Shown in pieces: positions 12,816 to 16,871 of a stretch of 64,000 nucleotides of DNA (position 1 is its first letter; each line of letters begins with the position of its first letter). Both the position numbers and the translations under genes were made by a program. The notes under the pieces were generated by a model. The model ran no database searches and was not told the DNA's origin. It saw nothing but the letters and a program-made list of their open reading frames with translations. Source of the stretch: Rhodospirillales bacterium (GTDB taxonomy: Bacteria; Pseudomonadota; Alphaproteobacteria; Rhodospirillales; UBA2165); NCBI GenBank assembly GCA_030745835.1, contig JASLNU010000108.1, positions 10,214 to 74,213 on the forward strand. Reading direction: 5' to 3'.

Positions 12816-13706
12816 TCAGATGCTTCGGCGCGCGCGTTCGGTGCGCAGCAGGTAATAGCTGCTGACGATGATGATGGCGGCGCCGAGATAGCTCCATCCG
12901 GGCGGAAACTCGGCGAACCAGATCAGTCCGATTGCGAAGGCGAAAACGATGCGCAGGTAATCAAAGGGCAGCACGAAGCTGGTTTCACCCAATCCGATAC
13001 CGTGGGTGAAGAGGGTTTGGCCGAAGACGCCGAGGGCGCCCATCAGCATCAGGATCACCAACTCGGTCGGCGTCGGTGTCTGCCAAAAAATCAGGGCCGG
13101 GATCGCCGACAAGACGGTGGTGGTGGCGGTGAAATAGAAAATGATCACCATGGTATGCTCGGTCCGGCTCAAGACCTTGACCACTAGCACGACAATGGTC
13201 GCCGTCACGGCGCCGCCGATCGCCGAAAAGTACCACGGGCTGAAACCCTCGCCGAACGGCCTGGTGATGATCAGGATGCCGAGAAAACCGATAATCGCGG
13301 CGCTCGCCCGCCGCCCGCCGACCACCTCGCCCAGGAACAGGCCGGCCAGAAGCACGGTGAACAGGGGCCGCGAAAACTGAATGGTGATGGCGTCGGCCAT
13401 GACGATATGCACGATCGAAAAGAACATCGCCATATTGCCGAGGAAACCGACCGAACCCCGCACCAGATGCAGCTTGAACCTGCCGGTCTTGAGATTGGCG
13501 AAACCGAACCGCCAGATGAAAGGCAACAGAAAAATAAATCCGGCCAGGAAGCGCATGAACACCATCATCGGCACCGTCAGGGAATCGCCCAAAAATTTTG
13601 CCAGGGAGGCCATGACAGTGAGGAGAAAGGCGCCCGCTATGACGTAGAGGGCGCCCCGGTAATTGGCATTGGCCGCCGGACTTGGCGGTTGGACGGCATC
13701 GGTCAT
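12816..13706 (-). CDS. DMT (EamA) family transporter
   Basis: About 10 hydrophobic segments, FLGEVVG and PFDYLR. Start set at ATG 13706; the upstream in-frame extension does not look coding. Confidence 0.88.
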   Translation of the reverse strand: MTDAVQPPSPAANANYRGALYVIAGAFLLTVMASLAKFLGDSLTVPMMVFMRFLAGFIFLLPFIWRFGFANLKTGRFKLHLVRGSVGFLGNMAMFFSIVHIVMADAITIQFSRPLFTVLLAGLFLGEVVGGRRASAAIIGFLGILIITRPFGEGFSPWYFSAIGGAVTATIVVLVVKVLSRTEHTMVIIFYFTATTTVLSAIPALIFWQTPTPTELVILMLMGALGVFGQTLFTHGIGLGETSFVLPFDYLRIVFAFAIGLIWFAEFPPGWSYLGAAIIIVSSYYLLRTERARRSI

Positions 13707-14142
13707 GGGGTCTACTCGGCGGATCAAGCCGCATCGAGAGGCGCGGCGGTAGGAATGGATATCCGATATATGAGGGAATGCAACCGCTTCGACGAATGCC
13801 AGCCTAGGGCGGTTCCGATTTAATCTGGCGCATGGCATCGGCGGTACGGGTTTCAGGCGCTTGATATGGGCCTTGAACTTAGAGACCGCCGGCCCCCGGC
13901 CATGCCCAATACGCATGGCCGATGCGACATGCGACACCGGTTTTCGTCATGGACATCCTACCCTTTTATACCCATTCATACCCTTTTGGGGACATTTAAG
14001 CTTGGCCGCCCCCCGCCCAACCCGCCAAAACCGGCAGCCGGCCATGCGGCAACCGCATGGCTTGAGCGGGAGGGCATCGGAGACGGGCGGCACCCCTCGG
14101 TTCGCGCCCCTTGGGCGCTCCGTCAAACTTCCTTATTCACGA

Positions 14143-14154
14143 TGTTAAAGAGCA
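14143..14154 (-). promoter_or_regulatory. boxA antitermination element
   Basis: The minus strand reads TGCTCTTTAACA (then TCGTGAAT), an exact match to the rrn boxA consensus. Confidence 0.75.
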
Positions 14155-14159
14155 GAGAC

Positions 14160-14189
14160 ATGATATAGAACGTATGTGGAACAATGCAA
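14160..14189 (-). promoter_or_regulatory. Sigma70-like promoter overlapped by an alphaproteobacterial LexA box (GTTC-N7-GTTC)
   Basis: Minus strand CTTGCATT-GTTCCACATACGTTC-TATATCAT; the LexA box at 14168-14182 fills the -35/-10 spacer. Confidence 0.7.
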
Positions 14190-14273
14190 GGGGCCGGGAA
14201 CCTTTAGGGGACCAACATAGGGGCAAAATCATCCCGGTCAAATGGATCCTATCAATCCGGAACCGCTCTGGAT

Positions 14274-16871
14274 TCAGGCCGCTTCCGCCTCGATCTCCTG
14301 GCCGTTTATGGTCAGTCCGTCGGTGCCGGCGCCGATATGCACGGTTTCGCCCTCTTGGATGGAGCCATCCAGGATCATGCTGGCCAGCGGGTTTTCCAGG
14401 TTGCGCTGGATCACCCGTTTCAGGGGGCGGGCGCCGTAGACCTGGTCATAGCCGGCATCGGCCAGCCAGGCGCGCGCCGGGCCGTCCAGTTCGAGCGCGA
14501 TATTACGGCTCTCCAGGCGGGCGACCAGGCGCGCCAGTTGGATATCGACAATGCCGTCCATATGTTCGCGGAACAGGCGGTGGAAGAGGATGATCTCGTC
14601 CAGCCGGTTGATGAATTCGGGCCGGAAGGCGGCACGCACCACCTCCATCACCTCGTCCCGGACCTCTATCGAATCATGGCCCTCGTCCTGGGCCGCCAGG
14701 ATATCGCCGCCGAGGTTGGAAGTCAGGATGATCAGCGTGTTGCGGAAATCGACGGTGCGCCCATGGCCGTCGGTCAGGCGGCCGTCGTCGAGAACCTGCA
14801 GCAAGATGTTGAAGACGTCCGGATGCGCCTTTTCCACCTCGTCGAACAGGATCACCTGATAGGGCCGGCGGCGGACGGCTTCGGTCAGGGCGCCGCCTTC
14901 GTCGTAACCGACATAGCCGGGCGGCGCACCGATCAGCCGCGCCACCGAATGTTTTTCCATGTATTCCGACATGTCGATGCGCTGCATGGCGCTTTCGTCA
15001 TCGAACAGGAAGGCGGCCAGCGCCTTGGTCAGTTCGGTCTTGCCGACGCCGGTGGGGCCGATGAACAGGAACGATCCCAGGGGCCGCGCCGCATCCTGCA
15101 GCCCGGCGCGGGCGCGGCGCACGGCATTGGAAACCGCCGCCAGGGCTTCCGATTGGCCGATCACCCGTTCAGCGAGACGGTCTTCCATCTGCACCAGCTT
15201 TTCGCGCTCGCCTTGCAGCATTTTGTCCACCGGAATGCCGGTCCAGCGTGAAACGATGGCGGCGATATGTTCGTCGGTGACCGCCTCTTGAACGATGTCG
15301 CGGTGCTCGGCCTCATCGGCGGCGGCAAGCTTTGCCTCCAACCCCGGGATCAGGCTGTATTGCAATTCGCCCGCCTGTTCCAGTTTGCCGTCGCGCAACG
15401 CCTTTTCCAGCTCGATCCGTGCCTGGTCCAGATGTTCCTTGATCTTGTGGGCTTCGGCGATTTCCTCTTTTTCGGCCTGCCATTGCCGGGTCAGGCGGTG
15501 GCTTTCCTCTTCCTGCTCTGCCAGTTCGACTTCCAGCTTCTCCAGCCGGTCCTGCGAGCCTTGATCGCTTTCCTTTTTCAATGCCTCGCGTTCGATCTTC
15601 AATTGGATGATGCGGCGGTCCAATTCGTCGATATCCTCGGGCTTCGAATCGACCTCCATGCGCAGCCGGCTGGCCGCCTCGTCCATCAAATCGATGGCCT
15701 TGTCGGGCAGGAAACGGTCGGTGATGTAGCGGGCCGATAGGGTGGCCGCCGAAACCAGGGCGCCGTCGGTGATACGCACGCCGTGGTGCAGATCGTATTT
15801 TTCCTTGACCCCGCGCAGGATCGAAATGGTGTCCTCGACGCTGGGTTCGGCCACGAACACCGGCTGGAAGCGCCGCGCCAGCGCCGCGTCCTTTTCCACA
15901 TGCTGGCGGTATTCGTTGAGGGTGGTGGCGCCGACGCAATGCAGCTCACCGCGCGCCAAGGCCGGCTTCAACAGGTTGGAGGCATCGATCGCCCCTTCCG
16001 CCGCGCCGGCACCGATGAGGGTGTGCATTTCGTCGATAAAGAGAATGACTTCGCCGTCGGATTCGATGACTTCGCTGAGCACCGATTTCAGCCTTTCCTC
16101 GAACTCACCCCGGAACTTGGCGCCGGCCAACAGCGCGCCCAGATCGAGAACCATCAGCCGCTTGCGGCTCAAGGCCTCGGGCACGTCGCCATTGACGATG
16201 CGCTGGGCCAGGCCCTCGACGATGGCGGTCTTGCCGACACCGGGCTCGCCGATCAGCACCGGGTTGTTCTTGGTGCGCCGCGCCAGGACCTGGACCGTGC
16301 GCCGGATTTCCTCGTCGCGGCCGATGACCGGGTCGAGCCTGCTTTCGCGCGCCTCCTCGGTCAGGTCGCGGGCGAATTTATTGAGCGCGTCGTAGCCGTT
16401 TTCGGCGGTCGGCGTATCGGCGGTGCGGCCCTTGCGCACTTCCTCAATGGCTTGGTTCAGTTTTTGCGGTGTCACCCCGGCCTTTGCCAGGATTTCGTGG
16501 GCCTTGGTTCCGGGCACCAGCACCAGCGCCAAGAGCATGCGTTCGACGGTGACGTAGCTGTCGCCGGCTTTCTCGGCGATTTCCTCGGCGCGTTTCAGGA
16601 CATTCGATGTTTCCGAGGACACGTAAACCTGACCGGCGCCCGATCCTTCGACACGGGGCAGGTGTTTGATCGCTTCCGTAACTTGGGCGAGGCATTGGGC
16701 GGCGTCCGCGCCAGAGGCGGCGAGCAGCCCCGCCGCCAGGCCTTCGCCGTCTTCCAGGAGCACCTTCAAGAGATGTTCGGGCGTCAGCTGTTGCTGATTG
16801 TCTCCGGAAGCGGCGGAATGGGCGGATTGGATGAAACCGCGCGCGCGCTCGGTATATTTTTCAAAATCCAT
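14274..16871 (-). CDS. clpB: ATP-dependent chaperone ClpB
   Basis: Two Walker A motifs ([16 protein letters not shown]), middle coiled coil, [11 protein letters not shown] and GARPLKR. Confidence 0.98.

Follow-up and report, generated by a model that had tools for sequence, protein, structure and literature searches.

What is the non-coding gap of 567 nt that separates a clpB-like gene from the start of an EamA/DMT-type transporter gene on the minus strand of a Rhodospirillales genome? The gap belongs to a stretch of 64,000 nt (contig JASLNU010000108.1, assembly GCA_030745835.1; hereafter the window), and an initial annotation, made from the letters alone, had read it as a LexA-boxed promoter and a boxA driving a structured, non-coding leader that might extend into the following genes. 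We find that it harbors one copy of a repeat family whose members join a 5' module, comprising a LexA-type promoter and a boxA of the kind found in ribosomal RNA (rRNA) leaders, to a 3' module of short iterated repeats (iterons) ended by TGTCGCA; such iteron arrays also directly follow genes resembling those of phage terminase small subunits (TerS). Our preferred reading, to which we give a probability of about one half, is that the SOS response switches on an untranslated transcript, which Nus antitermination carries into a pac-like site for the loading of TerS; the element would be a terS-less relative of terS-iteron cassettes. In the window copy the following parts can be distinguished:

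13891-14202, minus strand: whole repeat element; seven other full-length copies align over 14202-13891
14128-14195, minus strand: 5' module (promoter and leader box) by the family profile; nhmmer match C108:24341-24408 (C108 being the window contig), E 7.7e-18, one of 41 in the genome
14184-14189, minus strand: -35-like TTGCAT, read from the sequence
14168-14182, minus strand: GTTC-N7-GTTC (GTTC-CACATAC-GTTC), LexA-type direct repeat in the promoter spacer
14160-14167, minus strand: -10 region TATATCAT; TAWAT/TATAC is kept across copies
14128-14154, minus strand: rRNA-leader-type boxA box TGCTCTTTAACATCGTGAATAAGGAAG, aligning with the rRNA leaders and spacer of relatives
14104-14118, minus strand: hairpin 1, GCGCCC-AAG-GGGCGC, showing one-sided changes only and no compensatory pair
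14041-14061, minus strand: hairpin 2, GCCATGC-N7-GCATGGC, with arms invariant in 7/7 aligned copies
13948-13997, minus strand: iteron array of five repeats of ~10 nt (GTCC, GGGTA three times, GTCC cores) with A-rich spacers
13923-13936, minus strand: terminal box TGTCGCA, doubled in the window copy; it ends the 75 3' modules of the genome
13898-13920, minus strand: hairpin 3, GGCCATGC-N7-GCATGGCC, where homology among close copies ends

The motifs named in the initial annotation (TTGCAT, GTTC-N7-GTTC, the -10 region, the boxA 12-mer TGCTCTTTAACA at 14154-14143 of the minus strand and the three hairpins) are all present where it had placed them, and a separate check confirmed that hairpins 2 and 3 have common arms. 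As a whole, its interpretation is supported for the LexA-type box and the boxA and not supported for the uniqueness of the locus, the role as a leader and the structured RNA. Uniqueness is lost first: a comparison with the source genome (G000) and 40 relatives revealed the region to be dispersed DNA, BLAST retrieved seven further full-length copies from the source genome, with 71-84% identity over window positions 14202-13891, and profiles built from the two element ends detected 41 5' modules and 75 3' modules. In 38 of 41 cases a 5' module has a 3' module within 700 nt downstream on its own strand; the genome therefore contains at least 38 complete copies, among which the window stretch is one. 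The unit spans 190-410 nt; its middle part differs between subfamilies to the point of being unalignable, both end modules are kept, and looser relatives have only these two ends in common. A combined 5' pattern (GTTC-N7-GTTC, YAWAT, 12-28 nt, GTGAATA) matches 19 times in this genome, its reversed control not once, which is more than chance would give.

The distribution of this pattern is patchy. It matches twice in one genome of the same genus, three times in one genome of another genus, and in none of the other 36 genomes of the family; three of 401 genomes sampled from the order are positive. Among 185,579 species genomes, five family members were recognized in the 80 loci examined, the remainder being chance or unrelated matches, and these five sit in two records, both titled 'Rhodospirillales bacterium'. 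A metagenome scan yielded 10 loci, five of them from another lineage. The contigs of that other lineage (L181, L183, L185-L187) carry the same module of SOS box and rRNA-type box; downstream of it, an irregularly spaced repeat of ~23 nt, CGCTGGGCATGGGGTCCATCGTC, takes the place of the 10-11-nt iterons, and no terS gene lies within 1.5 kb.

The promoter part of the 5' module is strongly conserved. A perfect GTTC-N7-GTTC is present in 37 of the 41 modules, and the frame of TTG, box and YAWAY is kept in 36. This repeat corresponds to the LexA motif of Alphaproteobacteria as given in PMC3323433, and it is found at the relevant promoters of the genome itself: the lexA gene is preceded by TTGACG-N8-GAAC-N7-GAAC-ATATAT, with the box between -35 and -10, and recA by GAAC-N7-GAAC. 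The LexA-type box of the initial annotation is thus well founded. Over the whole genome, both strands included, the repeat occurs 165 times, against ~124 expected from base composition. In a second type of 5' module an inverted GAAC-N7-GAAC lies just after the -10 region; that the box is retained at another position suggests that what is selected is the binding of LexA and not a particular fixed sequence. A simple sigma-70 scan did not call the window promoter, because TTGCAT matches the first hexamer of the tool at 3/6 positions. Outside the repeat family, GTTC-N7-GTTC and CATAT were also noticed on the minus strand near position 12162 of contig C37, upstream of an open reading frame (ORF) with a CxxxCxxC motif typical, by eye, of radical-SAM enzymes; this is probably a genuine SOS gene.

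The second half of the 5' module is the leader box, which begins 5 nt after the -10 region and precedes non-coding DNA; its placement in the RNA depends on the start site. Its best-kept part within the family is (T)TGRACATYGTGAATAKG, and the flanking ACAYYGTKRAY is found in 26 of the 41 modules. As the source assembly contains no 16S or other rRNA genes, the rRNA operons of three relatives from the same family were read instead. A motif of ~20-27 nt corresponding to the box is present in the 16S leaders of G045, G022 and G004 and again in the 16S-23S spacer of G045; when the box is aligned with these relatives, GCTCTT, CAT, GT and ATA are invariant in 7/7 rows. The 20-mer pattern GCTCTTNNNCATYGTKRATA matches twice in G045 (leader and spacer), once in G022 (leader), once in G004 (leader), once in G011 (at a site that was not placed) and 15 times in the source genome, always within the repeat family; the reversed pattern gives no match. 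Judged by these matches, the box is the leader/spacer motif of the rRNA operons of this clade, its antitermination signal copied into the element, and the boxA of the initial annotation is borne out over more than its original 12 letters.

One could then regard the whole stretch as the decayed or orphaned leader of an rRNA operon, the more so as rRNA genes are missing from the assembly and several copies are near contig ends. This origin is highly improbable, since at least 15 copies carry the motif and since the copies near contig ends, where long enough, all continue into iterons and not into 16S. Moreover, the rRNA promoters of the relatives are different: they lack GTTC-N7-GTTC, and their box is located more than 100 nt downstream of a promoter-like TTGACA.

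The 3' module, which was absent from the initial annotation together with its link to terS, begins with four to six 10-11-nt repeats, set apart by A-rich spacers, and continues with a T-rich spacer and TGTCGCA. Its 75 occurrences fall into four iteron classes, CGGTA (26/75), CCCT (20/75), GCCT (15/75) and GTCC (14/75). Three 'solo' 3' modules abut the 3' end of a gene that matches Pfam Terminase_2 and phrog_51, the latter annotated 'terminase small subunit' (E 6.4e-16). The source genome encodes four such terS-like genes, and an array directly follows each of them (4/4); the window copy itself has no terS. The genes on C43 and C117 are associated with the GTCC class, with the stop codon inside the first repeat, the gene on C67 with the CCCT class and the gene on C84 with the CGGTA class; three of the four classes thus match resident terS cassettes, and no terS gene was found in this genome for the GCCT class.

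Of 39 genomes from the family, 18 encode homologs of these proteins, and each genome of this genus has 4-5 of them. Terminase_2 (PF03592) matches all 18 aligned members (28.8 bits for the first one, the cut-off being 26.1) and 55 of 57 database homologs, which are named 'phage terminase small subunit' or 'hypothetical' and originate from metagenome bins of the Rhodospirillaceae type. The AlphaFold model of TerS has a mean confidence (pLDDT) of 82, and its three best fold matches are small terminases of the SF6/SPP1 type. Periodic arrays (autocorrelation of at least 0.58, a threshold read from the result table) were detected downstream of 21/30 terS loci, upstream of 0/28 and inside 2/30; at 0.7 these counts become 11, 0 and 0. 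In a phylogenetic tree, three well-supported TerS clades each keep a single iteron class across 3-4 species, and TGTCGCA is also located downstream of terS-like genes in relatives. Many of the terS-like genes carry SOS-type boxes too. Short elements on C13, C153 and C102 reproduce the promoter, SOS box, ribosome-binding site and start codon of the C84 terS gene with no gene body, and one on C85 only its promoter and box; from their sequences, these four are terS-less derivatives of terS-iteron cassettes. The window-type element is itself probably related to, and derived from, such cassettes. Apart from rRNA operons, some CRISPR arrays and phage nut sites also make use of boxA. The initial annotation had seen no rRNA, phage or CRISPR here; it overlooked that its box belongs to rRNA leaders and that, toward the 3' end, the element has the cognate site of small-terminase-like genes.

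Several other features of the arrays and cassettes can be mentioned. Tandem 3' modules of different classes, 100-270 nt apart, are found on C16, C91, C109, C126, C6, C41, C85 and C116, commonly separated by hairpins of CACAGAG-type repeats. In two genomes of another genus (G004 and G016; loci L174, L175 and L180), up to about ten TGTCGAT or TGTCGAG repeats spaced by 10-12 nt follow terS-like genes, and the single terminal TGTCGCA of the source genome looks like a relative of these. A gene of 198 amino acids (aa) diverges from the GTCC-class terS on C43 (L148:4209-4805), with a paralog on C117 and a similar gene start in G003; it has no known family and a weak peptidoglycan-binding match (E 0.008), and it has an AT-rich control region with GTAC-N7-GAAC motifs in common with this terS. 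The CCCT-class cassette (L150, C67:11000-21000) is ~2.4 kb from recA. Known types of sites were also considered for the element and dropped for lack of fit: the ends of Tn7-, Mu- and IS21-type transposons, the origin ends of IS91/ISCR, integron attC/attI sites, plasmid centromeres, oriT, a DnaA box and a second promoter on the opposite strand, reading from TGCGACA.

Taken together, the two modules suggest the following scheme. LexA would hold the promoter shut; upon DNA damage, RNA polymerase would start near 14150-14155, and the nascent boxA would recruit NusB/NusE and their partners. According to the review PMC12360218, boxA recruits these factors and shields untranslated transcription from Rho. 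The untranslated transcript of the element could then escape Rho and run through the iteron array, where each TerS-like protein would bind iterons of the matching class. This would most likely result in the loading of a packaging or terminase complex from a helper phage at a terS-less, pac-like site. A 5' module that includes boxA, as in the window, would suit an untranslated unit in need of protection from Rho. This scheme can be extended to the whole genome, which would be studded with dozens of damage-switched packaging-initiation sites sending Rho-proof transcripts into class-specific TerS arrays, with several TerS paralogs directing headful packaging from many points of the chromosome after SOS induction or helper infection; the result would be a distributed transfer system, similar to satellites or gene transfer agents (GTAs), built only from its own terS genes and non-coding sites. 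We consider this extension tentative and on balance doubtful.

A number of results weigh against the proposed terminase-loading function. The large terminase and HK97 capsid families PF03354, PF03237, PF04466 and PF05065, the only ones searched, were not found in the assembly, which is 93% complete. No TerS relative was retrieved from INPHARED phages by tblastn, nor from IMG/VR viral contigs with the one peptide pattern used. Two 3'-module patterns gave 16 + 21 = 37 matches in viral contigs; none has periodic repeats upstream (best 0.42), and these matches therefore look like chance. The fold matches of TerS have E-values of at least 0.09, none reaching 0.001. The agreement of TerS clade and iteron class could reflect shared descent, as gene and array are physically linked. 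Within the family, GCTCTT is kept in 23 of the 41 modules and the exact 12-mer in 2. The window array is of mixed class and falls below the threshold of the 3'-module profile, which a sister copy on C54 reached (E 0.004). The alignments of copies revealed no inverted repeats at the termini, no dedicated comparison of the two ends having been made, and no target duplication was resolved for the two copies checked in three genomes of the same genus. Finally, no RNA data set containing the stretch was found, and two metatranscriptome contig sets gave no match to it, which is evidence neither way. The terS cassettes are surrounded by housekeeping genes, with thiolase, hisD, chemoreceptor, TctA/B, SelB, epimerase, recA and PrpF genes as neighbors; no integrase, repressor, replication or capsid-remodeling genes were found near them, and PADLOC assigned no defense system to three TerS proteins and the divergent neighbor.

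Does the transcript instead act as an RNA? That no convincing gene is present, as the initial annotation had stated, is confirmed by the comparison of copies. The candidate frame of 59 codons with a TTG start is rejected, as the aligned copies differ by insertions and deletions (indels) of 1, 2 and 4 nt, and neither the 23-codon frame nor an ORF of 100 codons on the plus strand is preserved, their indels not being multiples of three; the distance from ATG to TGTCGCA also differs by one base between copies. The structured RNA has fared less well. A consensus fold computed from seven copies has +1.4 as its covariation term, with only 4/66 pairs compensatory, and the window copy folds slightly better than its shuffled versions (z -1.87; 11/200 shuffles as good). 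The hairpins are real GC-rich palindromes whose arms never vary; with no covariation and a weak fold score, a structured RNA is not supported. An Infernal/Rfam comparison placed no family at gathering score in the whole window; its sub-threshold matches are all outside the element, with not even a weak one inside 13707-14189. Neither a transfer RNA nor a transfer-messenger RNA was found in the region, and no terminator-like site in 13300-14500.

These results bear directly on a family of SOS-induced small RNAs, in which boxA would protect the transcript and the repeats would bind or titrate a protein, TerS-like or other, in the manner of CsrB. The promoter and boxA at the 5' end, the hairpin that follows TGTCGCA in many copies and the self-contained position of units between convergent genes would all suit such RNAs. 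We nevertheless hold this explanation to be rather improbable: besides the lack of covariation, of an Rfam match and of a terminator, the 10-11-nt phasing with A-tracts fits the wrapping of DNA better, and the same arrays follow terS genes, where they need not belong to a separate RNA.

A loading site for TerS also has to be distinguished from a leader of the neighboring genes. The surroundings of the element in the window are as follows:

14274-16871, minus strand: clpB-like gene, an ORF of 865 aa (Pfam AAA_2, ClpB_D2-small, Clp_N), upstream neighbor outside the element
14208-14269, minus strand: dispersed repeat of ~50-62 nt resembling repetitive extragenic palindromic (REP) sequences, a separate repeat between the clpB stop and the element
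13770-13790, minus strand: intergenic stretch beginning GCGGTTGCATTCCC, similar by eye to the short clpB-transporter spacer of the sister species G002, BLAST giving no alignment there; possibly the transporter's own promoter region
12816-13706, minus strand: EamA/DMT-type transporter gene (Pfam EamA, E 2.5e-24), downstream neighbor outside the element

A carbon-nitrogen hydrolase gene of the carbamoylase type comes after the transporter gene on the strand of the element. The initial annotation had offered, as an alternative to a free-standing RNA, an SOS-induced and antiterminated leader of this single locus that extends into both genes; the element and the two genes are indeed on the same strand with no terminator-like site between them, and an antiterminated polymerase could read on. 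There is also the metagenome contig L184, which matches the end of C99 of the source genome: its 5' module breaks off immediately behind the box, with an ORF directly adjoining, and this may be an SOS/boxA module driving a gene. The comparison with the sister species G002 argues otherwise. The transporter start codon aligns with the start of its G002 counterpart, the aligned clpB and transporter flanks are only ~70 nt apart in that species, and the element is absent; the REP-like repeat, the element and ~95 further bases are therefore extra in the present genome. In addition, ~185 nt of unrelated sequence separate the end of the element from the transporter start. A crude gene call over 29 copies, one of which remained uncalled, makes the downstream gene co-directional with the element 12 times and convergent with it 16 times (hence 16/28), and the upstream gene co-directional in 15 and divergent in 6. 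There is no orientation bias toward downstream genes, which indicates that the unit stands on its own. With at least 38 copies in the genome, a role as leader of the transporter and carbamoylase-type genes appears improbable.

Other repeats accumulate around the element. The REP-like repeat has ~38 BLAST matches in its own genome and is also present in relatives of the same genus and in one other genus. Directly upstream of several copies lies a different repeat, the perfect palindrome CACTAAAAGTAAACTGTCACCG..CGGTGACAGTTTACTTTTAGTG (C138:1-70, C70:29400-29490, C108:6560-6640 and C99:11886-11930), and this edge of the element looks like a hot spot where repeats of other kinds collect. On the other side, the motif ATGCGCCAGATTAAATCGGAA at window positions ~13815-13837 recurs just after the copies on C138 and C108:6265-6560. 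One close copy (C10:49975-50534, L023) is split by ~290 nt of AT-richer DNA inside its iteron region.

The same features recall a selfish repeat of the miniature inverted-repeat transposable element (MITE) type, lacking any host function, whose promoter, boxA and iterons would be relics of the parent cassette and whose conservation would result from recent spread or from the needs of mobilization. The high copy number, the exclusively intergenic position, the patchy occurrence (3/401 genomes of the order), the insertion relative to the sister species, the nesting with other repeats, including the split copy, and the indifference to the orientation of downstream genes are all expected of such a repeat. 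It is less easily reconciled with the retention of both end modules, exact LexA half-sites included, while the middle has become unalignable between subfamilies, and with the presence of a LexA-type box in two different types of 5' module. The alignments showed no inverted terminal repeats, no transposase is linked among the neighbors examined, and a further species of the genus has an element of 65% identity at the corresponding locus. As only one flank is syntenic for the two copies compared with three genomes of the same genus, the boundaries of the element cannot be fixed from sister genomes. A purely selfish repeat seems to us possible, though unlikely.

If the reading of a transcribed TerS loading site is correct, the SOS box, boxA and a recognition site for terminase, all of them well studied, have been joined in one small unit; our literature search, conducted mostly at the level of titles and abstracts, found no published description of a family uniting them. 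The element would represent a natural case of a boxA copied out of the rRNA operon and put, in many copies, under LexA control, and would allow direct tests, in an alphaproteobacterium, of what Nus factors do outside rRNA. Should the arrays be true loading sites, the genome or a minimal phage parasite would render large parts of the chromosome transducible without a prophage, which would be relevant to the exchange of genes between marine bacteria. Otherwise, the family remains a clear instance of modular repeats that bring their own promoter and are able to impose damage-induced, termination-resistant transcription on their neighbors in either orientation.

In relation to known systems, the 5' module is reminiscent of the boxA leaders of rRNA operons: right after its promoter, the element has the ~20-nt motif of the 16S leader and 16S-23S spacer of relatives, and the RNA downstream would be untranslated, the situation in which boxA shields from Rho according to PMC12360218. 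However, the promoter is of the LexA type and not of the growth-rate type, dozens of copies exist, and the box leads to terminase-type iterons, not to rRNA, spacers or phage genes. With MITE and REP repeats the element shares its short, non-coding, multi-copy, intergenic and lineage-restricted nature and its nesting with other repeats; it differs in having two unlike, functional-looking modules as its ends, with a middle that is replaced between subfamilies, and in the lack of terminal inverted repeats in its alignments, in which no dedicated end-to-end comparison was run. Known pac sites contain repeats. As in phage pac and cos sites, the short repeats of the arrays are phased, with A-rich spacers, are located next to terS, and their class tracks the TerS clade, as shared descent could also bring about; here up to 75 candidate sites per genome lie outside any phage, many with an SOS promoter and a boxA of their own. 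The closest precedent comes from the Staphylococcus aureus pathogenicity islands (SaPIs), whose operon I is regulated by LexA and which have their own terS and a cognate pac site (PMC3152322). Like these satellites and the related phage-inducible chromosomal islands (PICIs), the present cassettes would combine an SOS-controlled gene for a small terminase with a specific DNA site close to it, apart from large terminase and capsid genes (PMC3152322), and would for the latter reason depend on a helper. They differ from them in their size (~0.7-1 kb), in their location among housekeeping genes with no integrase or replication module nearby and no known helper, and in that most copies have lost terS to become non-coding units of 190-410 nt scattered over the chromosome.

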